Positions 4,791-63,825 of a stretch of DNA of 64,000 nucleotides are shown here, one piece after another. The notes beneath the pieces were generated by a model that worked only from the letters and a program-made list of their open reading frames with translations, was not told where the DNA came from and searched no databases. The number at the start of each line of letters is the position of its first letter. Within the stretch, counting starts at the first letter, position 1. The stretch spans positions 112,074 to 176,073 of the forward strand of contig PHAI01000001.1 in the NCBI GenBank assembly GCA_002840305.1, in the 5' to 3' direction. The stretch is from Candidatus Falkowbacteria bacterium HGW-Falkowbacteria-1 (lineage in GTDB: Bacteria; Patescibacteriota; Patescibacteriia; Patescibacteriales; UBA12465). A program made the translations under genes and the position numbers.

Positions 4791-5105
4791 ATGACAAAGA
4801 TAGCGGTTATAAAAACAGGCGGAAAACAGTATAAGGTTAAAGAAGGCGATGTTATTAAGATTGAAAAACTCCCTCTCGAAGACGGAAAAAAGGTTAAATT
4901 TGAAACCTTAATGATTGCTGATACCGACGGCAGCTCTATTGAAATTGGAGCTCCTTTTTTGGGAGAAAAAGTTGAAGGAGAAACTGTTTCTCAAGGTAGA
5001 GCCAAGAAGATTTTAGTTATAAAATACAAAAACAAAACTAGATACAAAAGAACTATCGGCCATAGACAAGAATTTAGTCAAGTGAAGATTGAAAAGATAG
5101 CTTAA
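4791..5105 (+). CDS. rplU: 50S ribosomal protein L21
   Basis: The translation begins MTKIAVIKTGGKQYKVKEGDVIKIEKL…, an L21 signature. Confidence 0.9.
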   Translation: MTKIAVIKTGGKQYKVKEGDVIKIEKLPLEDGKKVKFETLMIADTDGSSIEIGAPFLGEKVEGETVSQGRAKKILVIKYKNKTRYKRTIGHRQEFSQVKIEKIA

Positions 5106-5151
5106 TATTTCAAACATATTTCTAAAAAATGAGCCAGTATTTGGCTCATTT

Positions 5152-5769
5152 TTATTTTAACTCATTTCTGTATTTTAAAGCATTACTCAGAGTAGTTTCG
5201 TCCACGTACTCCAGGCTCATTCCAGTTGACAATCCTTGAGCTAGTTTACTTATTTTTATTTTTGGGCTTTTTAATATTCTTTTTAAATAAAGAGAAGTCG
5301 TCTCTCCCTCAATAGTTGGACTTAGAGCTAATATCATTTCTATTTTTCCATTTTTTTTAATTAACTCGTTTATATGTTTTACCAATTTTTTTATATTTAA
5401 TTTTTCTGGTCCAATGTTTTCTATAGTATTTACGAGTCCATTAAGTATAAAATATTTTCCGTTATATTGTTTGGTATTTTCAATGCTGGACATGTCTTGG
5501 AAGTTGGCTATTATACAGATTAAATTTTCTTGTCTTTTGTCGTCAGAACATATTGGACAAATTTCTTTTTCCGAAAAAGCTGAACATTTTTGACAAATCT
5601 TAAAACCATCAAAAATATTATTTAAGTCTTTGGCTAATAATTTAATTTGCCCTGGGCTTTGTTTCATTATATGGAATACGTATCTTTCGGCCGTTTTTCG
5701 GCCTACTCCGGGCAATTTTGAAAATTGTTGGATCAGGTTTTCTATTGTTTTTGGGTAATGTATTGACAT
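5152..5769 (-). CDS. recR: Recombination protein RecR
   Basis: A helix-hairpin-helix N-terminus (LPGVGRKTAERYVFHI) is followed by a C4 zinc finger (CQKCSAFSEKEICPICSD) and a Toprim-like C-terminus. Confidence 0.9.
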   Translation of the reverse strand: MSIHYPKTIENLIQQFSKLPGVGRKTAERYVFHIMKQSPGQIKLLAKDLNNIFDGFKICQKCSAFSEKEICPICSDDKRQENLICIIANFQDMSSIENTKQYNGKYFILNGLVNTIENIGPEKLNIKKLVKHINELIKKNGKIEMILALSPTIEGETTSLYLKRILKSPKIKISKLAQGLSTGMSLEYVDETTLSNALKYRNELK

Positions 5770-5828
5770 TTTTTTTAAAATAGTTTATATTTCTCTAGTA
5801 GTTTTTTAACAATTAAACAAATATCTTT

Positions 5829-6197
5829 ATGGTGACATCGTTTTCTGTTCTTAAATTTCGTAAAATATCCTCCCGCAAGGTAGAGGAAAAACAGAGTATC
5901 AATTCTTTTGTTCTTCGGAACAACAATGGCCAGTTAGTTCAGATAAGGCCTGGGCTTTGCAAATCGAAACCAAAGTCCTTTTTTGAAAAAATTTTCACAG
6001 GGAAAGATGTTCCTAATAAAGTTATTTTTGTCGGAAATTTGGAGACCGCTCAAACAAGGGCGGCTAATCGGCATTATTACGAAAGGGTCTTAAAGTTGAC
6101 CGAAAGTAAAGAATATAAATTACAAGAAGTAGTTTATAATGACCCCCATCATGCTCTCGAGCAAGAGGAGAGGGGTTTTGTTTTCTCGGCCAACTAA
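5829..6197 (+). CDS. Hypothetical protein (small ORF between recR and ybaB, opposite strand to both)
   Basis: The ORF is 122 aa with no recognisable motifs and is followed by a hairpin plus T-run. It has no obvious Shine-Dalgarno sequence. Confidence 0.3.
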   Translation: MVTSFSVLKFRKISSRKVEEKQSINSFVLRNNNGQLVQIRPGLCKSKPKSFFEKIFTGKDVPNKVIFVGNLETAQTRAANRHYYERVLKLTESKEYKLQEVVYNDPHHALEQEERGFVFSAN

Positions 6198-6214
6198 TTT
6201 AAGACATTTATCTT

Positions 6215-6248
6215 CACGCGCCTTCAACAGAGGGCGCTTTTTTATTTT
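6215..6248 (+). terminator. Rho-independent terminator-like hairpin plus T-run
   Basis: The sequence GCGCC-ttcaacagag-GGCGC is followed by ttttttatttt. Confidence 0.4.
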
Positions 6249-6254
6249 CTACAA

Positions 6255-6530
6255 TTAGTTTAATCCTGGTATTCCACCCATTTCTTGCATTTTTTTGGCC
6301 ATTATTCTTTGTGTTTTTTTTATAGCGTCATTAAAAAGATCTTTAGTTGTTCTAGCAATCTCTTCTTTGCTTGAGTCGTTGTTTATAGATAGCTCCATGA
6401 TTTCCATATTGCCGTTCATTACTAACTTTATTCCATTTTTTTCTAATTCAACTTTTTCATCCGCCAAAGCATTTTGCATTGTTTTGGCTTGGCTTCTTAA
6501 ATCTTTTAATTGTTTTAGTTTATTAAACAT
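6255..6530 (-). CDS. ybaB: Nucleoid-associated protein YbaB/EbfC
   Basis: The translation MFNKLKQLKDLRSQAKTMQ… resembles YbaB (…MKQAQ.MQ…). The ATG chosen is internal to the longer ORF in the track. Confidence 0.75.
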   Translation of the reverse strand: MFNKLKQLKDLRSQAKTMQNALADEKVELEKNGIKLVMNGNMEIMELSINNDSSKEEIARTTKDLFNDAIKKTQRIMAKKMQEMGGIPGLN

Positions 6531-6612
6531 AAATTTTTTTGTTGCGCTGTAGTCAAATAAGCACAAAGTGCTTTTATATGAACAAGAGCGAATATTTGAT
6601 TATTGTTAGATA

Positions 6613-7998
6613 TTAATTATCTTCTTTTTTTGATAAATTTCTAAAGCTGGCAGTTTCTTCGGAGAAAAATAGATCTATTTTTCCGGTTGGGCCGTTTCTA
6701 TGTTTGGCTATGTGAATTTCGGCTTTATATCTTTCTTCCATTGATAATTCTTGAACATTAAAAGCTCTGTCGGCCGCTTTTCTGTATATAAACATTACAA
6801 CGTCAGCGTCTTGTTCAATGGATCCCGAATCTCTAAGATGGGAAAGCTTTGGTATTGACGAGCCTGTTTGTTGTTCGGCTGCTCTAGATAATTGGGCTAG
6901 AGCCAAAACGGGGACGTTTAATTCTCTGGCTATACCTTTTAGTCCGCGACTAATTTCTGATATTTCTTGAACGCGGTTGTCACTAAATTTTCCTCGCCCC
7001 TCCATTAACTGCAAGTAGTCGATAACTATTAACCCCAATCCCTTTTCTGATTGAAGCCTTCTGCTTTTTGCTCTTATTTCCATAACCGATGAATTGGGGG
7101 TGTCATCTATATATATTGGTGTTTCGGCTAAAATACCCATAGCTTCTCCTATTTTTTGAAAATCATTATCTTCTTCTTTGTCTGATAAATTTCCGGTTCT
7201 CATTTTCCATAGATTTACATTAGCTTGAGCACAAAGCATTCTGTCTACGAGTTGCTCCTTGCTCATTTCTAAAGAAAATAGTCCTACCCCAACTTTATTT
7301 TTTATAGCTGCCTGACGAGCAATGTCTAAAGCCAAAGATGTTTTTCCGACGCTAGGTCTGGCTGCCAAGATTACTAAATCAGATTTTTGTAAGCCAGCCA
7401 AAAGATTGTCTAAATCATGAAAACCAGTTGATAGTCCTCTTAATTTTCCGCCTTTTTTGTGTAATTCATCTATTCTTTCGAAAGCTTCGGTGAGCAAATT
7501 GTCTATTCCTGAAAATGAATTTTTTAAGTATTTCCTAGAAACACTAAACATTTTTTTTTCTGCTTGGTCAAGAATTTCATCTACATCTCTCTCTTCTTCA
7601 AAGCTTAAGTCCATTATTTCACTGGCTGATATTTGTAGTCTTCTAAGCGTTGCCTTTTTTTGTATTAAGTTGGCATAATAAGAAATATTGGCTGTTGTGG
7701 CGACCGTGTTTGATAGTTGAGCCAAATAACTTCTGCCACCTATTTCGGCTATTAATTTTTTTTCTTCTAATTTGTTAGACAGGGTTATAATATCTACCGG
7801 CTCTTGATTATTGAAGAGCTCTATCATTGATTCGAATATTGATTGGTGGTTATTGTAATAAAAGTCAATCGGATTTAGTATATCCATTACTTTAAAAATA
7901 GCCTCTTTGTCTAATAGTAAGCAACCTAGAAGGGATTGCTCTGCTTCAATATTCTGTGGAGGCATCTTGCCGAGTTGATTTTGCTTTTCTTCAGCCAT
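6613..7998 (-). CDS. dnaB: Replicative DNA helicase DnaB
   Basis: The N-terminal domain (PPQNIEAEQSLLGCLL) is followed by Walker A (ARPSVGKTSLALD) and a RecA-like C-terminus. Confidence 0.9.
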   Translation of the reverse strand: MAEEKQNQLGKMPPQNIEAEQSLLGCLLLDKEAIFKVMDILNPIDFYYNNHQSIFESMIELFNNQEPVDIITLSNKLEEKKLIAEIGGRSYLAQLSNTVATTANISYYANLIQKKATLRRLQISASEIMDLSFEEERDVDEILDQAEKKMFSVSRKYLKNSFSGIDNLLTEAFERIDELHKKGGKLRGLSTGFHDLDNLLAGLQKSDLVILAARPSVGKTSLALDIARQAAIKNKVGVGLFSLEMSKEQLVDRMLCAQANVNLWKMRTGNLSDKEEDNDFQKIGEAMGILAETPIYIDDTPNSSVMEIRAKSRRLQSEKGLGLIVIDYLQLMEGRGKFSDNRVQEISEISRGLKGIARELNVPVLALAQLSRAAEQQTGSSIPKLSHLRDSGSIEQDADVVMFIYRKAADRAFNVQELSMEERYKAEIHIAKHRNGPTGKIDLFFSEETASFRNLSKKEDN

Positions 7999-50683: not shown

Positions 50684-50786
50684 AAGATAAACTTAAAGGA
50701 CGAAGAAATTCGTCCTTTTTTATTTGCTTTTTTTTGAAAATATTGTTATCATATTAATAGATTTTAAATTTTTTAAACTTTATAAT

Positions 50787-51158
50787 ATGATTAAAAAAAT
50801 ATTTTCTTATTTTTTGTTGATATCATTTTTCTTTTTGGCCTCTTCTAGTTTGGTTTTTGCACAAGCCGATCAAAATAACCCCCCTGCATCAACGGCGGTT
50901 AGTCTTTCTAATCCTTTAGGCGCAGGAGCTACAGCTCAAAGCGTTATTGGAAATGTTATCAGCCAGGTATTGGGCGTTGTTGGAGCCCTGGCCTTAATCA
51001 TGTTTATTTATGGAGGTCTTACTTGGATGACTGCGATGGGCAATGAACAACAAATAAAAAAAGGTAAAGATATTTTGATGTGGGCTACATTAGGGTTGGT
51101 TATAATTTTCTCGTCATACGCTTTAGTTAAATTTGTTTTACAAGCCATCGGCGCATAA
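50787..51158 (+). CDS. TrbC/VirB2-like pilin-domain protein (signal peptide + two TM helices)
   Basis: The signal peptide MIKKIFSYFLLISFFFLASSSLVFA is followed by GGLTWMTAMGNEQQIKKGKDIL and a second TM. It is paralogous to the N-terminus of 15775..18279. Confidence 0.55.
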   Translation: MIKKIFSYFLLISFFFLASSSLVFAQADQNNPPASTAVSLSNPLGAGATAQSVIGNVISQVLGVVGALALIMFIYGGLTWMTAMGNEQQIKKGKDILMWATLGLVIIFSSYALVKFVLQAIGA

Positions 51159-56033: not shown

Positions 56034-56381
56034 ATGAATATCAAAACACAAAATGACACCGAAAATACTAAGGCTCAGATGCGAAAAGGGTTTTTAGAAT
56101 TCTTAATTCTTTTAATGATATCAAAAGAAAAAATGTATGCATCTGATATTTTAAAAAAACTTAAAATGGCCGACCTGATTGTGGTCGAAGGGACGCTGTA
56201 TCCGCTCCTGATGAGATTAAAAAACTCGGAATTACTGGAGTATGTTTGGGAAGAATCAAAAAGTGGACCACCTCGAAAATATTATACAATAACGAAGGAC
56301 GGCCTGGGAGCGATTAAAGAGTTAAGTAAAACATGGTTTTGTTTGTATAAAGCCATAAACATTTTAATAAAAGATAAATAA
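56034..56381 (+). CDS. PadR-family transcriptional regulator
   Basis: FLEFLILLMIS…YASDILKKL…EGTLYPLLMRLK…PRKYYTIT forms a winged helix-turn-helix. Confidence 0.8.
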   Translation: MNIKTQNDTENTKAQMRKGFLEFLILLMISKEKMYASDILKKLKMADLIVVEGTLYPLLMRLKNSELLEYVWEESKSGPPRKYYTITKDGLGAIKELSKTWFCLYKAINILIKDK

Positions 56382-56402
56382 TTTATAAAATAATTTAATA
56401 GT

Positions 56403-58193
56403 ATGAAAAAAACAATACCAGTGACACTTAGTAACTTCGCCTACATCTTGGATGAGGATGCTTATAAAAAATTAAATGAATACATAGAGGGCATAAGAAG
56501 TCACTTTAGTATCACTGATTCAAAAGAAACCACCGATGAGATTATAGGTGACATTGAAAGCAGCATCGCGGAGAAGTTCAGCTCCAAATTAAATGACTCG
56601 AAACAAGTCATAAGCATTGAGGACGTAGTTGAGCTCGTAAAATTAATGGGCTCTGTGGAAGACATTGCTGGTGACAGAGAAGATGTGCGAGATAAGATTG
56701 GCGAAAGTAATTATAATAAAAACGAAGAAAAAACAGAGAAGGGAAAGAAAAAAAGATTATTTAGAGACACAGATGATGTTATTATAGCCGGTGTAGCCTC
56801 TGGACTGGCTAGTTATTTCGGAGTCGATTCCGTTTTTGTTAGGTTGTTATTTTTCGTTTCAATGTTTTTTGGTGGTGCTGGCGTCGTGATTTATGTTATT
56901 TTATGGCTTGTGGTGCCAAAAGCAAAAACTTCAACTCAGAAACTTGAGATGCAAGGCGATTCTGTAACATTAAAACAATTAGAGAAATTAGCCAGAGAAA
57001 AGACCGAAGAATTTAAGAATATTGACAGGGGCAAAATAAAGAATTTTATAAATTCTATATTTGAAATAATTGGCAAGATACTCAAGGCCTTTTGGAAAGT
57101 TTTTATGATTTTTTGGGCCGCACTTGGTTCTTTTATTGGTGGCGTAATCATAGTGGTTTCAACGCTTGCGCTCACCGTTGTCGGTTTTGTTTTAGCTGCT
57201 ATGGTTTTTAACTCAGACTCACCTTTTATAAATATGCCCGAAGGTTTGATTGAAACTATGGGGCGCGGTATTTTGCCATTGGCTGCTTTTTTTGTAGTGT
57301 TCGTGCCAATAATATTCTTAATATTATTAGGGGCATCTCTTGTTGGAAGAAGAAATGTTTTTAATTTACCAACTAGTTTAACGCTAATCGCTATTTGGGT
57401 GACAGCCACCATTGTTTTTGGAGTTGTAGGGATTGATACGATTCCAGAAATAAAGAAACAAATAGAATTATATGATTCAGATATAAACCTTATTACCAAT
57501 GATGTTGAGGTGAGCAGTTTTGATAGAATAAAAGTGGGCGCTGCGTATAAGGCAAATATTACAGCCGGGGATGAATATAAGGTAACCGCGAAGGGAAGAG
57601 AAGATGATTTAGAAAAAATGAACGTGAGTGTGATTGAAGGAGAGCTGATTATTAAAAGAAATCAAAACGAAATCTGTTTGTTTTGTCACAAAGGAAATAA
57701 TGTGACTTTCGAAATAACCACGCCCAGTTTAAACAATCTAGAGGCCAGTGGCGCAAGCAGTGTTGATGTAATTGGTTTTAGCGGAGAGCTTATACAAGCA
57801 AAATTTTCTGGCGCTTCGAAAGGCGTTCTTGATTTAAATTATGGCAAATTCGATATGGATTTAAGTGGGGCCTCAAAATTAATATTAAATACCGCGACTT
57901 CAACCGAATTGAAAATAAAGTTAAGTGGAGCTTCAAACGCAGAAATATCAGGAGTGGCAGATGTATTTAAAGTTTATATGTCTGGTGCATCAACATTAAA
58001 TTCGTATAAACTTAAAACAATGAGTGCCAAGCTTGAGCTCAGTGGGGCTAGCAAGGCGGAACTTAGTGTTTCTAGAGATTTAGATGCAAATGTTTCGGGT
58101 GCTAGCACAGTTTACTATGAGGGAAATCCTGAAATAAATACAAACGAAGAGAGGTCAATCATTTTAAATAAAGAATATTCAGAGCTATATTGA
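56403..58193 (+). CDS. PspC-domain membrane protein with a C-terminal DUF2807-like (putative adhesin/beta-helix) domain
   Basis: The PspC motif is DDVIIAGVASGLASYFGVDSVFVRLLFFV. It is followed by multiple TM helices and repeated GAS…L segments. Confidence 0.65.
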   Translation: MKKTIPVTLSNFAYILDEDAYKKLNEYIEGIRSHFSITDSKETTDEIIGDIESSIAEKFSSKLNDSKQVISIEDVVELVKLMGSVEDIAGDREDVRDKIGESNYNKNEEKTEKGKKKRLFRDTDDVIIAGVASGLASYFGVDSVFVRLLFFVSMFFGGAGVVIYVILWLVVPKAKTSTQKLEMQGDSVTLKQLEKLAREKTEEFKNIDRGKIKNFINSIFEIIGKILKAFWKVFMIFWAALGSFIGGVIIVVSTLALTVVGFVLAAMVFNSDSPFINMPEGLIETMGRGILPLAAFFVVFVPIIFLILLGASLVGRRNVFNLPTSLTLIAIWVTATIVFGVVGIDTIPEIKKQIELYDSDINLITNDVEVSSFDRIKVGAAYKANITAGDEYKVTAKGREDDLEKMNVSVIEGELIIKRNQNEICLFCHKGNNVTFEITTPSLNNLEASGASSVDVIGFSGELIQAKFSGASKGVLDLNYGKFDMDLSGASKLILNTATSTELKIKLSGASNAEISGVADVFKVYMSGASTLNSYKLKTMSAKLELSGASKAELSVSRDLDANVSGASTVYYEGNPEINTNEERSIILNKEYSELY

Positions 58194-60489: not shown

Positions 60490-61074
60490 TTATAAAATTT
60501 CAATAACTGCCTGGTCAAGCACTCTTTTCAAAATCGGGTGTTTAATTTTATCACCATCTTCTTTAATAAATTCTTCGACTTTTATCGGTTGCCCTTCTTT
60601 TTGGTATTTAGCGGCTCTTACAATCATTTGGAGTTTGTCTAACTGGTGGGCAATCTGGGATCTTTCTGTTTTTTTTTCTTCAAACTCTAGCCACAGTTTA
60701 AATATTTTTTTGCCCTCAATTCCAAGCTCCAAACATATTTTTTTCATGGCAGTTAGTTCTGCTTGATATTTTTCGTCTTTTGTCCAACGTGTGCTTTTAG
60801 GGCAACTATTATCAGTTCTTCTGTCGCCGACATTTTTATCAGATTCTGGCCAATCATGAATCTTGAGCATTTTATTGAGCCCTGGGATATTAAATAATTT
60901 TTCTGCTAAAAAAACAAGTTCGTCGGTATGTTCTCCGACTGTTTCCGGATCCTTAACCTTTCTGTCAACCCAGCCGGTACGTGGCGTTTTGTGAAGAACA
61001 TCAATGACTTTTACAACTTTCGTTAAAGATTTTCCTTGAAAATTTAACGGGTATTGATAGTTTTTGTTTGACAT
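60490..61074 (-). CDS. HD-domain hydrolase (YfbR-like 5'-deoxynucleotidase family)
   Basis: HTDELVF…, LKIHDWPE, and an HD…D pattern are present. Confidence 0.6.
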   Translation of the reverse strand: MSNKNYQYPLNFQGKSLTKVVKVIDVLHKTPRTGWVDRKVKDPETVGEHTDELVFLAEKLFNIPGLNKMLKIHDWPESDKNVGDRRTDNSCPKSTRWTKDEKYQAELTAMKKICLELGIEGKKIFKLWLEFEEKKTERSQIAHQLDKLQMIVRAAKYQKEGQPIKVEEFIKEDGDKIKHPILKRVLDQAVIEIL

Positions 61075-61139
61075 GCTTATCGTTTTTTAAGGTTCGACAT
61101 TAATTAGCCTATTATATTTATTTTTTATTAGCTTGTCAA

Positions 61140-61215
61140 TGAAGTCGCTATTACGTAGTTGACAAATTAGCAAAAAATAATTAGTATAGAGAAAAGTACT
61201 TTGAAAACTAAATAA
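61140..61215 (+). promoter_or_regulatory. Putative promoter with an overlapping 7-bp inverted repeat upstream of the radical-SAM gene
   Basis: cTTGTCAAtgaagtcgctattacgtagTTGACAAa, in which TTGACA is followed by a 17-nt spacer and tagtat. Confidence 0.35.
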
Positions 61216-61226
61216 ATGTCTATGAT

Positions 61227-62327
61227 ATGATAAAATTAAGGAATCCGTTGAAAGCGCAGTTAAAAATTGCGTATCTTGTCGTTACTTATGCGTGCAATAA
61301 CAAATGTAATTTTTGTTATGCCCAAAGTATGCTTAAAAAGTTTATTGAGGGCGAAGAATTAGTTCATATGCCCTTAGAGTTTGCTTATCAAATAGTGAGC
61401 GAGTTGAAGTCTTTAGGTGTTAATAGATTTCATTTAATCGGTGGCGAGCCTACCGTTTATCCTTATTTGCTTGATCTTGTAAGGTTTATCAAACAAGACC
61501 CAAGAGTCTATGTGGCCATAGTGACTAATGGTAGAAAAATTGGAGACGAAGCTTATTTGAAAGACTTAGTTGATGCTGGGGTTAATGGATTCCAGATCTC
61601 GATTCAAGGAGCTGACGCCGAAAGACATAATGCCGTGACTGGTAGTTATAGTTTTGACATGACTTATAAGGCCTTGTTGAATCTGGCTAAATTAAATTTT
61701 CCGCAATTTTCTGCAGCCATCACGGTTAGTAAGGACAATTGCGACCAGATTGAAGGATTTATTCATACCATGAAAAAAGAAATTTTTAATGGTGGCCATT
61801 CTGGAAAAATTTTTATCAATTTTGCTGCTCCAAGTATCAATTTTAATTCAAGCACTTCCGTTAATGGAGAGTATGCTTTAAATCCCAGAGAAGTTGTTGA
61901 TCTTATTTTGAAGATTGACTCTCTCTTTCCAGCAGAGCTGTATTCTGAAATTATTTTTTCTAGTCGCGTCCCTATTTGTATGTATCCGTCTGGATCCTTA
62001 GAAAGACTGAACAAAAATAATCGAATGAGTGCAGGTTGCTCTTGCGGTTTGCATAATGGCAATATTATAACTATTGATCCCAGAGGAGACGTTCTTCCTT
62101 GCACTAACTTTGCCGGGACAAGACTTTTCAATTGTCGTGGTGAAAATAATGTTTTTGATAAAGATTCTTTTATTAATGGGATTAATAGATATTTCCCTAA
62201 GATAAAAGAACTAGCTCATTCTTATCCATCAATTAAATGTAAAGGATGTAGCAAAATTCATCGCTGTTTTGGAGCTTGTTTGTTCTGGTGGTTTTACTTT
62301 AATCCTGATCATTTTATAAAACCTTAA
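61227..62327 (+). CDS. Radical SAM enzyme with a C-terminal SPASM/twitch auxiliary Fe-S domain (anSME/peptide-maturase-like)
   Basis: CNNKCNFCY is the CX3CX2C motif, followed by GGEP. The SPASM region is CSCGLHNGNIITIDPRGDVLPC and CKGCSKIHRCFGAC. Confidence 0.8.
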   Translation: MIKLRNPLKAQLKIAYLVVTYACNNKCNFCYAQSMLKKFIEGEELVHMPLEFAYQIVSELKSLGVNRFHLIGGEPTVYPYLLDLVRFIKQDPRVYVAIVTNGRKIGDEAYLKDLVDAGVNGFQISIQGADAERHNAVTGSYSFDMTYKALLNLAKLNFPQFSAAITVSKDNCDQIEGFIHTMKKEIFNGGHSGKIFINFAAPSINFNSSTSVNGEYALNPREVVDLILKIDSLFPAELYSEIIFSSRVPICMYPSGSLERLNKNNRMSAGCSCGLHNGNIITIDPRGDVLPCTNFAGTRLFNCRGENNVFDKDSFINGINRYFPKIKELAHSYPSIKCKGCSKIHRCFGACLFWWFYFNPDHFIKP

Positions 62328-62329
62328 TT

Positions 62330-62542
62330 ATGGTAAATTCATTAGATTTCCTCGATGAAAAGATTGGTAATCGGCAAAGGATGAGTAAAGCTGATTTAAT
62401 TGGCCTTGTTTTGTTTAAAAAGATAAGAAGGTTCAAAAAAGCTTTTATTTCTTTTTTATCAAAACATAAGTTTTTTTCTTTTTATCTTTTAGCTTTGCTA
62501 ATTTATTTGTTTATTAAGTTTGTTTTTCGTTATATTGTTTAA
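62330..62542 (+). CDS. Small hydrophobic/cationic ORF translationally coupled to the rSAM gene
   Basis: Its ATG lies 3 nt after the rSAM stop codon. The 70-aa product has an amphipathic basic segment and then a TM helix, and contains no Cys. Confidence 0.3.
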   Translation: MVNSLDFLDEKIGNRQRMSKADLIGLVLFKKIRRFKKAFISFLSKHKFFSFYLLALLIYLFIKFVFRYIV

Positions 62543-62561
62543 CCTTTTAAATTGCTTTATT

Positions 62562-62726
62562 ATGGGTCCTTTAACTGGTGGTTTAATTATTGGTGCCATC
62601 GTCGGAATTGTCAAAATTATCAAAGGCGATGATGATAAAAAAGGAAAAGGAAATGAAGGTGGAAAGGGAAAAGAAAAAGATAGTGATTATGACAGCAGTT
62701 GTAACTGTTCCATTGATCAAAATTAA
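62562..62726 (+). CDS. Small peptide: glycine-zipper helix + charged linker + C-terminal SSCNCSIDQN (candidate rSAM substrate)
   Basis: MGPLTGGLIIGAIVGIVKIIKGDDDKKGKGNEGGKGKEKDSDYDSSCNCSIDQN. A terminator follows. There is no clear Shine-Dalgarno sequence. Confidence 0.3.
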   Translation: MGPLTGGLIIGAIVGIVKIIKGDDDKKGKGNEGGKGKEKDSDYDSSCNCSIDQN

Positions 62727-62799
62727 TTTTCCAAACTATTCCATTCTTAAAACTTTTTCTAGAAACTTTATTTTTTAAGCGAAGCTTAAAAGCTTAATT

Positions 62800-62830
62800 C
62801 CCCCTTGTGTAAACGAGGGGTTTTTTATTT
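62800..62830 (+). terminator. Rho-independent terminator ending the rSAM operon
   Basis: cccctt-gtgtaaac-gagggg followed by ttttttattttt. Confidence 0.5.
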
Positions 62831-62902
62831 TTAATTAAAAATACCGTTGTTAAAGCTATTCGATGTTTTGTTTTTCATTCTTTGCTGTGTTATAATTATT
62901 TT

Positions 62903-63244
62903 ATGAATGATTACGCCACTAAATTTCTAGATAAAATAGTTAAAGTAAAAATAGATAGACCTTTAGGCTCTAAGCATCCTAAACATAGTATCTATTATTC
63001 TGTTAATTATGGTTATGTTCCTGGAGAAATGGCGCCTGATGGAGAAGAATTAGACGCATATGTTCTAGGCATTTTTGAGCCGGTAAAAGAGTTTGTTGGC
63101 AGATGCATTGCGGTTGTTTATAGACTTAATGACGACGATGATAAGTTAATAGTTGTTCCTGATGGAATTAGCTATACAAAAGATCAAATTTCGTCCTTGG
63201 TTGAATTTCAAGAGAGATTTTTTGAGTCAATAATTATAAAATAA
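62903..63244 (+). CDS. ppa: Inorganic pyrophosphatase (family I), compact form
   Basis: NYGYVPGEMAPDGEELDAYVLG…VGRCIAVVYRLNDDDDKLIVVP parallels E. coli Ppa NYGYI…DGDPVDVLV…[26 protein letters not shown]. Confidence 0.6.
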   Translation: MNDYATKFLDKIVKVKIDRPLGSKHPKHSIYYSVNYGYVPGEMAPDGEELDAYVLGIFEPVKEFVGRCIAVVYRLNDDDDKLIVVPDGISYTKDQISSLVEFQERFFESIIIK

Positions 63245-63249
63245 ACATT

Positions 63250-63825
63250 ATGAAAATTGAATACGAAGCAACTTTTATTAATGTTAATAAAGATGAGATA
63301 CGCAAAAAATTAAAAGAAATAGGAGCCTCTTTAATTAGACCAGAATTTTTTCAAAAAAGACTATCCTTTGATCTTCCTTCTGGTCATGAAAAAAAAGGGG
63401 CATGGCTTAGGGTGCGAGACGAAGGTGATAAAAATACTTTAACTTTAAAAATAATTGACGGTGAGAAAATAGAGGACCAAAAAGAGATACTTTTAAATAT
63501 TGACGGTTTTGATGAGGCTACTGAAATGTTGTCTCTTATGGGTTGCCGTCAAAAGGCCTACCAGGAGAGTAAGCGAGAGCTTTGGCTTCTAGACGAAGTT
63601 GAGGTTACAATTGATGAGTGGCCATATTTAGAACCCTACGTTGAAGTTGAGGGCGAATCCGAGGAAGTCGTTAGAAATGTTAGCCATAAGCTGGGTTTTG
63701 ATTATTCTAAGGCCTTGTTTTGTTCTGTCGATAAGCTGTACGAGATGAAATACGGTGTCCCCAGAGAAATTATTTGCCAAAATACTAAGAGAATAACTTT
63801 CGATGACCCAAATCCATTTTTATAA
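63250..63825 (+). CDS. CYTH-domain (triphosphate tunnel metalloenzyme) protein
   Basis: The N-terminus is EYEATF (the ExExK-like motif) and the size is CYTH-like. Confidence 0.6.
   Translation: MKIEYEATFINVNKDEIRKKLKEIGASLIRPEFFQKRLSFDLPSGHEKKGAWLRVRDEGDKNTLTLKIIDGEKIEDQKEILLNIDGFDEATEMLSLMGCRQKAYQESKRELWLLDEVEVTIDEWPYLEPYVEVEGESEEVVRNVSHKLGFDYSKALFCSVDKLYEMKYGVPREIICQNTKRITFDDPNPFL

Follow-up and report, generated by a model that had tools for sequence, protein, structure and literature searches.

The window analysed here is a stretch of 64,000 nucleotides (64 kb) from Candidatus Falkowbacteria bacterium HGW-Falkowbacteria-1, a groundwater bacterium with a tiny genome. Positions 61159-62830 hold a transcription unit of about 1.6 kb with three genes, in the order promoter-like site, radical S-adenosylmethionine (rSAM) gene, open reading frame (ORF) 2, ORF3 and terminator. 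A first-pass annotation had proposed this unit as a candidate modification system for a peptide resembling peptides that are ribosomally synthesized and then modified post-translationally (RiPPs). The conservation of both small ORFs beside the enzyme gene, their conservation as coding sequences and the distance of the enzyme from housekeeping families support this proposal, and the unit keeps its status as a candidate. With moderate confidence, the cassette is read as a minimal, self-contained operon that matures a ribosomal, RiPP-like peptide, probably by forming thioethers. The features of the unit are listed below, with the evidence in brackets; pS and pN are the proportions of synonymous and non-synonymous differences.

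61159..61187, plus strand: sigma-70-like promoter of the operon, with -35 box TTGACA (61159-61164), 17-nt spacer and -10 box TAGTAT (61182-61187) (pattern scan)
61193..61202, no strand assigned: palindrome AAAGTACTTT, just 3' of the -10 box
61227..62327, plus strand: rSAM enzyme with SPASM-type C-terminal domain, 366 amino acids (aa) (Pfam, NCBIfam, Cys conservation, structural model)
62330..62542, plus strand: ORF2, 70-aa protein (alignment, pS/pN, intact in 13 of 13 loci)
62562..62726, plus strand: ORF3, 54-aa candidate substrate peptide (alignment, pS/pN, found only beside the rSAM gene)
62801..62830, plus strand: intrinsic terminator, hairpin CCCCTTGTGTAAACGAGGGG (62801-62820) followed by the T-run TTTTTTATTT

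The radical SAM enzyme

The 366-aa protein was 100% identical to the hypothetical protein CVU82_00840. The rSAM cluster motif that had been recognised in the first pass as CNNKCNFCY was confirmed as C23-N-N-K-C27-N-F-C30-Y, encoded at 61293-61316. Pfam Radical_SAM (PF04055) matched the enzyme with 90.5 bits against a cutoff of 29.5, and C23-X3-C27-X2-C30 was invariant across 101 relatives.

The SPASM motif consists of seven cysteines, CX9-15GX4C - gap - CX2CX5CX3C - gap - C, to which the anSME structure adds one upstream cysteine; the eighth cysteine completes auxiliary cluster II in that structure. In the window enzyme the C-terminal motifs GCSCG...DPRGDVLPC and CKGCSKIHRCFGAC were present and were kept in homologs. 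The auxiliary-cluster cysteines C251, C273, C292, C338, C341, C347 and C351 are encoded within 61977-62279, and their pattern (C251, C273-X13-G287-X4-C292, C338-X2-C341-X5-C347-X3-C351) was at least 97% conserved in the family. The family-conserved cysteine is C273, not C271. The last (eighth) SPASM cysteine is absent, the enzyme ending 15 residues past C351, and any cysteine later than C351 occurred in 15 of 56 relatives at variable positions. Since the eighth cysteine is absent from the enzyme and from most relatives, one auxiliary cluster probably has a non-Cys or open coordination site.

Pfam SPASM did not match the whole enzyme at E <= 0.01, nor residues 251-366 at E <= 10. PF13186 was nevertheless matched directly by 38 of the 101 family representatives (best E 2.9e-7), and the family profile aligned to the rSAM and SPASM regions of CteB and, over the full length, to anSME and PqqE. 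Because of these matches in relatives, the profile alignments and the conserved Cys pattern, the C-terminal domain is classified from sequence as SPASM-type, homologous but divergent. To the original description of a SPASM/twitch-type C-terminus, the motifs of which were present, are added the absence of the last cysteine and the lack of a Pfam match of the enzyme itself. A high-confidence model of the enzyme (AF2, 101 sequences, pLDDT 93) had its best structural matches among the peptide-modifying SPASM enzymes ChlB, anSME, SuiB and CteB, which were about equally close. It superseded a first AF2 model built from 6 sequences, in which pLDDT was below 50 at residues 332-358, the cluster-binding loops.

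The enzyme was also compared with the curated families of NCBIfam, and no match reached a curated cutoff. The scores (cutoffs in brackets) were 86.8 bits (265) for MftC (TIGR03962), 71.3 bits (284) for MoaA (TIGR02666), 64.9 bits (381) for PqqE (TIGR02109), 55 bits (500) for AhbD and 49.7 bits (500) for NirJ2. The anSME model TIGR03942 (cutoff 349) was not among the best 25 NCBIfam matches, all of which had at least 40.4 bits. As all scores were far below the cutoffs, membership of the anSME, MftC, PqqE, MoaA and heme-pathway families was rejected. Clustering with a housekeeping family was likewise not seen among the relatives, as none of the 101 family representatives matched an NCBIfam model at 1e-40. 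The first-pass statement that no sulfatase gene lies nearby held for the neighbour genes from 49.9 to 64 kb of the window, among which no sulfatase domain was found.

The families of peptide maturases gave a similar picture. StsB (NF045574) reached 67.6 bits against a cutoff of 625 and aligned to the rSAM core only, and the window enzyme has no N-terminal extension. Sactipeptide maturases of the StsB and SkfB (TIGR04403) type are defined by a cutoff score and an N-terminal RiPP recognition element (RRE), neither of which was found in the enzyme. The PapB family (NF047865) aligned over residues 16-352 with 47.9 bits against a cutoff of 340. With regard to the SCIFF models TIGR03973 and TIGR03974, the window peptide has 2 Cys and no NCBIfam match, and the enzyme is just 366 aa long, its rSAM motif starting at residue 23. 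By these scores the enzyme belongs to no curated family.

The two small genes and their inheritance with the enzyme

The 70-aa ORF2 is translationally coupled to the rSAM gene, directly behind which it had been placed in the first pass; its ATG lies 2 nt past the rSAM TAA. Its N-terminus is conserved as M-x-N-S-[LF]-D-F-L-x-E-K...R-Q-x-M, the first 20 residues being the most conserved part. A basic stretch (net +7/+8; +8 in the window) precedes a C-terminal hydrophobic helix (Kyte-Doolittle 2.2-2.5; 2.5 in the window), and the protein contains no Cys. The predicted topology of ORF2 has one pass through the membrane and a cytoplasmic N-terminus.

ORF3 contains GPLTGGLIIGAIVGIV and ends in DSDYDSSCNCSIDQN. 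The homologous peptides begin with MDP or MEP aligned to MGP, and the conserved start of ORF3 is therefore ATG 62562, which gives 54 aa, and not TTG 62520 as first annotated. The glycine-zipper helix, the Lys/Asp/Gly linker and the two-Cys tail of the earlier description were all confirmed. The hydrophobic helix at the N-terminus spans residues 3-20 and carries the glycine zipper G-x3-G-x3-(G/A) (Kyte-Doolittle 2.3-2.6), and the Lys/Asp/Gly linker in the middle varies in length. The invariant tail D42-x-D44-x-x-C47-N-C49-S-[IV]-D52-Q-N54 is encoded at 62685-62723; in it, the invariant D42, D44, N48, D52 and N54 flank Cys47 and Cys49. Tyr43 is the sole aromatic residue and is Arg in the lineage P0014.

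In a profile search of 5.8 billion proteins, ORF2 was confined to this cassette (2 clusters), and ORF3 formed 4 clusters, every one beside the rSAM gene. Close homologs of the enzyme were equally few: a word-indexed protein search returned only three, with 72, 68 and 59% identity. The gene order rSAM - ORF2 (68-70 aa) - peptide (46-54 aa) was found in all close-clade loci with downstream DNA, ORF2 overlapping or abutting the rSAM stop. At each of the 13 close-clade loci in which its position is covered, ORF2 was found intact, and so was the Cys peptide at 17 of 17, as the proposal of a conserved cassette had required. The peptide gene thus adjoins the gene of the presumed modifying enzyme and is co-inherited with it, which is the arrangement of a RiPP cluster. 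A scan of metagenome DNA for more lineages of the peptide or ORF2 gave no new lineage, and neither did word-indexed protein searches.

Coding conservation of the small ORFs was examined by codon-level comparison of the window with the related cassette L001. For the rSAM gene, pS was 0.72 and pN 0.18; for ORF2 the values were 0.77 and 0.33, and for ORF3 0.71-0.83 and 0.23-0.24. The two peptide paralogs within L001 differed with pS 0.79 and pN 0.12. As synonymous change was saturated and non-synonymous change low, ORF2 and ORF3 are both taken, on codon evidence, to be protein-coding and under purifying selection, in agreement with the first-pass proposal. The idea that ORF2 and ORF3 are one gene, split by a frameshift or read by programmed frameshifting, was rejected, because the frame offset differs between lineages and because two stops in L001 (7303-7305 and 7318-7320) interrupt the frame of ORF3 after ORF2 has ended and before the ATG of ORF3 is reached.

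The L001 lineage carries a tandem duplication of about 630 bp (L001 7196-8437; also in L017, L018 and L025), which provides a second intact peptide gene. The duplicated segment consists of a decayed 3' half of ORF2, the peptide gene, the terminator, and the beginning of the next gene together with its promoter. The two peptide copies were 76% identical in amino acids and their terminators 93% identical; the second copy has its own promoter-like site and terminator, and the N-terminal helix and the C-terminal motif are preserved in the duplicated peptide. Peptide copy number differs between closely related strains, L013-L016 having a single copy. It is on the peptide gene that this variation in copy number centres.

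The wider family, known systems and the proposed chemistry

A degenerate-pattern scan of 185,579 species genomes gave 80 loci. The distant full-length homologs of the enzyme (24-31% identity) came from Clostridia, Bacilli, DPANN archaea, Saccharibacteria and other Patescibacteria, Gammaproteobacteria and actinomycetes. An exhaustive search with a hidden Markov model (HMM) returned 454 cluster representatives (50% identity clusters) at E <= 1e-30, the window clade being one of them. An adjacent small ORF with a Cys-rich tail was present in 39 of 78 distant loci. With nearby peptides defined as ATG-started ORFs that are 30-100 aa long, have 3 or more Cys among their last 25 residues and lie within 300 bp on the same strand, Cys-tailed ORFs made up 42 of 118 nearby ORFs and 155 of 2464 elsewhere in the same loci (odds ratio 8.2, p = 2e-19). 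The distant precursors share a leader, M..L.ELL..YKGT.I.AP..G, which is followed by Cys/Asp-rich cores such as NYDCDP, NNLDCNCVDGDCSTETYEY, (CHCSSDDC)n and CDCDCNC; no NCBIfam entry matched them. Because nearby Cys-rich ORFs are enriched and leader-bearing precursors lie adjacent, the enzyme family, taken as a whole, behaves as RiPP maturases do. A literature search found no description of this rSAM branch or of rSAM RiPPs from DPANN archaea or the candidate phyla radiation (CPR).

Several further observations were made in these distant loci. The precursor family, which is large and apparently uncurated, was seen at L026-L100 (e.g. L034 7010-7237, L042 7021-7281, L076, L079, L081, L091, L029 and L041) in gut Clostridia, Bacilli, DPANN archaea and CPR bacteria, with repetitive cores including (CHCSSDDCxxxCYD)n besides NNLDCNCVDGDCSTETYEY and NYDCDP. 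Small HExxH proteins (AHEIIH, RHEISH) directly follow the precursor at L011 2491-3105 and L051 1609-2043 and are possibly leader peptidases or tailoring enzymes; the window cassette has no counterpart. A few kb from the first rSAM-peptide pair, L011 has a second, larger rSAM/SPASM-type gene (5070-6904, 473 aa); the 83-aa ORF in front of it contains CxxCxGxG zinc-finger repeats like those of DnaJ. At L005 (1-9000), a 29%-identical homolog lies beside the prophage-like genes Bro-N/ANT, DnaB and RusA; a small signal/transmembrane protein, a Y_phosphatase3 fragment and a Ser/Thr kinase follow the enzyme gene, and a Cys-rich 64-aa peptide is found upstream instead. The proteins P0040, P0063, P0069, P0134, P0137 and P0149 are about 900-1300 aa long with 3-4 separate profile matches and are apparently multi-module rSAM/SPASM fusions.

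For the window cassette, the support from these relatives is architectural and compositional and not one of substrate homology. Some distant cores contain CNCVD, similar to CNCSID in the window, but homology of ORF3 to the wider-family precursors was rejected, as the hhalign probability was 1% and the two shared only their Cys/Asp/Asn composition and the CNCxxD-like string. The N-terminus of ORF2 was rejected as a homolog of the wider-family leader too; an HMM of 38 leaders scored -3.4 bits, below many shuffled controls, and the hhalign probability was 0.4%. These values bear on the explanation that ORF2, not ORF3, is the true substrate or a co-substrate. ORF2 does occupy the coupled slot right behind the enzyme, where the precursor genes of many distant relatives overlap or abut the rSAM stop (L011, L081, L091, L038, L084), and its N-terminal 20 residues are its best conserved part. 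It lacks Cys, however, while the peptides of the family are Cys-rich, its score with the leader profile lies below shuffled controls, and of the genes duplicated in L001 it is the peptide gene that has stayed intact, the copied 3' part of ORF2 having decayed. We consider ORF2 a very unlikely substrate.

Among known systems, the window's cassette most resembles the maturases of ranthipeptides and sactipeptides, but without the leader/RRE logic and with a membrane partner. Ranthipeptides contain an rSAM-installed thioether from a Cys sulfur to a non-alpha carbon of the acceptor residue (PMC8326336). Their maturases PapB (freyrasin) and NxxcB likewise combine an rSAM domain with a SPASM-type domain and have an adjacent small peptide that brings together Cys and Asp/Asn. 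NxxcB couples Cys to Asn at the beta-carbon, the Asn being located three residues upstream, and an Asp there is tolerated (PMC9389541; PMC8326336); PapB joins Cys to Asp across spacings of 0-6 residues (PMC9413430); D-x-x-C of the window resembles NxxC of NxxcA, and C-x-x-D the CX0-6D accepted by PapB. Even so, the PapB model, though aligned at full length, scores too far below its cutoff for membership in that family. In contrast to both systems, the window peptide has no leader, only 2 Cys and an N-terminal glycine-zipper helix, the enzyme lacks an RRE and the eighth SPASM Cys, and the operon includes a conserved small membrane protein. In CteB, which matures SCIFF (thermocellin), a substrate Cys is bound at an iron site left open on an auxiliary cluster (PMC8326336); the Cys ligation of the window enzyme, being incomplete, is analogous to this. 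Unlike the window enzyme, CteB has about 450 aa with an N-terminal RRE, and a SCIFF precursor combines a leader with six Cys in about 45 residues; neither the window peptide nor the enzyme matched a SCIFF-type NCBIfam model. anSME has all eight auxiliary Cys and a sulfatase as substrate, whereas the window enzyme lacks the eighth and has a 54-aa peptide as its conserved partner. The uncurated rSAM/SPASM branch shares with the window enzyme full-length homology, the same seven Cys, the same short C-terminal tail W..(F/Y).NP..YI and, typically, an adjacent small Cys-containing peptide. It differs in that its peptides carry the leader and ORF3 does not, in that it has no homolog of ORF2, and in that several of its loci place an HExxH protein next to the precursor.

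The data show the anatomy of the genes, their conservation, selection on the coding sequences, the fold and family of the enzyme and the pairing of its family with Cys-rich peptides; we infer ORF3 as the substrate, a thioether as the product, a membrane location and the role of ORF2. The enzyme would cleave SAM at the CX3CX2C cluster and would take a hydrogen atom from the invariant tail of ORF3. One or both cysteine sulfurs would then be joined to a carbon of a neighbouring residue, most likely an Asp or Asn side-chain carbon as in ranthipeptides. D44-x-x-C47, C49-x-x-D52 and C47-x4-D52 are the candidate crosslink motifs, giving one or two intramolecular thioethers, and the auxiliary cluster, short of its eighth Cys, could be the place where the substrate thiolate is held. 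The product would probably remain at the membrane, because of the hydrophobic helices and because no genes for leader processing or export are linked to the cassette; ORF2 would be a partner in recruitment, scaffolding or protection.

Thioether formation is the favoured chemistry, by analogy with ranthipeptides, and is the least secure step of the proposal. The same peptide might be matured by other chemistry: Cys oxidation (an anSME-like formylglycine or thioaldehyde), epimerisation, a C-C or C-O crosslink, or modification of Asp/Asn in the tail. The structural neighbours are compatible with this, as they are about equally close and perform several chemistries (cyclophane formation by ChlB, Cys oxidation by anSME, a Lys-Trp C-C bond by SuiB, a thioether by CteB), and the enzyme matches no curated family. 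The residues that are invariant in the ORF3 tail are Cys, Asp, Asn, Ser and Gln, however, and the wider family is dominated by Cys/Asp-rich cores, which are typical of Cys-to-Asp/Asn thioethers (PMC9413430, PMC8326336). A triceptide or cyclophane on Tyr43 was rejected, because this sole aromatic residue is Arg in P0014, which argues against a conserved cyclophane. Altogether a chemistry other than thioether formation seems rather unlikely.

Several points weigh against a RiPP-like, thioether-forming operon. Fold and sequence cannot separate thioether formation from other radical chemistries, and a modification of ORF3, of whatever kind, is a prediction. A classical RiPP has a recognisable leader and core, and the leader is removed or the product exported; here a hydrophobic helix occupies the leader position. 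No leader was detected in ORF3, the leader HMM and hhalign against the wider-family precursors being both negative. The enzyme has no N-terminal RRE, as the rSAM motif begins already at residue 23, and no peptidase, transporter or exporter is conserved with the cassette. The predicted topology of ORF3 is ambiguous, owing to its net acidic tail. Genomic context comes from three lineages only (window, L001-type and L023-type), all related Patescibacteria, and half of the distant loci have no obvious Cys-rich neighbour. One arrangement that would accommodate the missing leader is a leader in trans, in other words a precursor split by nature: the C-terminal helix of ORF2 and the glycine zipper of ORF3 would form a membrane complex, the conserved cytoplasmic N-terminus of ORF2 would dock on the maturase in place of a leader, and the crosslinked product, never cleaved or exported as a free peptide, would remain as a knot anchored in the membrane, at the surface of the CPR cell or at its inner face. 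We regard this arrangement as quite doubtful.

New peptide chemistry comes in large part from rSAM/SPASM maturases. The branch described here comprises at least 454 clusters (Clostridia, DPANN archaea, Patescibacteria) that are paired with Cys/Asp-rich peptides; it is absent from NCBIfam and only partly seen by Pfam SPASM. The Falkowbacteria cassette is an extreme, minimal offshoot of it, without leader, RRE, peptidase or exporter, and if its peptide is modified, substrate recognition must differ from the leader/RRE model. If the proposal is true, this would be one of few cases in which an ultra-small CPR genome maintains a specialised peptide chemistry, which suggests a role at the cell envelope or in host interaction. 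With three genes in 1.6 kb, the system can be tested directly by co-expression.

Promoters and surroundings of the operon

Two genes downstream of the operon, a small pyrophosphatase-like (PPase-like) gene (62903-63244) and a CYTH gene of the class IV adenylate cyclase/triphosphatase-like type (63250-63825), form a tightly coupled pair (window 62882-63825). Both lineages have the pair next to the cassette, but not on the same side: it lies downstream in the window, whereas in L001 (4878-5809) it lies upstream. A CYTH gene was found near the rSAM gene in 3 of 78 distant loci. Because of the opposite sides, the intervening terminator and the absence of the pair from most distant loci, it is tentatively treated as synteny and not as part of the cassette. 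In a Saccharibacteria locus (L051 2018-2623), the rSAM-precursor pair is followed, at a distance of about 500 bp, by a CYTH gene of 40% identity.

The presence of this nucleotide-metabolism pair beside the cassette in both lineages is one argument for the explanation that the rSAM enzyme acts on a non-peptide or a distant protein, with a role in making a cofactor or lipid or in maturing a sulfatase. In that case the small ORFs would encode unrelated small membrane proteins, or else membrane anchors or subunits of the enzyme, and C-N-C might be a ligand of a metal or Fe-S cluster. The enzyme's similarity to MftC, MoaA, PqqE, NirJ and Tes-type enzymes, weak and partial as it is, points the same way, as does the lack of leader, RRE, peptidase and exporter. 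Those family scores were, however, 3- to 10-fold under the cutoffs, no sulfatase-like gene was found among the neighbours examined, and a terminator separates the operon from the PPase-like gene. Moreover, the enzyme family is strongly associated with Cys-rich peptides, and the peptide is co-inherited exclusively with the enzyme and has been duplicated beside the enzyme gene. A non-peptide or distant protein substrate is therefore judged unlikely, and maturation of ORF3 remains the preferred reading.

Upstream, the operon faces a divergently transcribed gene:

61139..61111, minus strand: divergent promoter of the HD-domain gene, perfect 12/12 consensus TTGACA-17-TATAAT
60490-61074, minus strand: HD_3-domain gene, upstream neighbour of the operon, behind the 12/12 consensus promoter

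The -35 boxes of the two back-to-back promoters are 19 nt apart (window 61111-61187). The operon had been credited with a promoter TTGACA…tagtat of its own, embedded in a 7-bp inverted repeat. The promoter-like site is present, with 10/12 consensus matches in the pattern scan, but the repeat TTGTCAA/TTGACAA is accounted for by the two -35 boxes. Promoter-like sites in this AT-rich stretch were not more frequent than in shuffled sequences (6 observed, 9.6 expected). The segment from -35 box to ATG was identical to that of the L001 cassette at 59 of 74 nt (shuffled null 46 +/- 2.7, maximum 53), despite a different gene upstream and saturation at synonymous sites. The operon promoter is thus supported by the conservation of this segment in L001 and not by site counts. 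The palindrome core AAGTACTT occurs once in the 64-kb window and is kept at the same position in L001; the palindrome AAAGTACTTT may be an operator or an element of the 5' untranslated region. An Rfam search of the 5' region and the operon gave no family match, and a riboswitch or other known RNA was rejected there, only sub-threshold chance matches being obtained. At the other end, the hairpin and T-run bear out the clean terminator of the first-pass annotation, and in L001 a similar terminator follows each peptide copy. An antisense promoter-like site (11/12, TTGACA-17-AATAAT) lies inside the ORF3 coding region on the minus strand (window 62586-62614) and may be due to chance in AT-rich DNA.

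Further upstream of the operon, a small TrbC/VirB2-type protein (like a type IV secretion system pilin) is encoded at 50724-51158, and the stretch 56034-58193 encodes a PadR regulator and, after it, a membrane protein of 596 aa (PspC-domain/DUF2807). Other genes nearby encode an Fpg glycosylase, an AI-2E transporter, a rubrerythrin and an MFS transporter.

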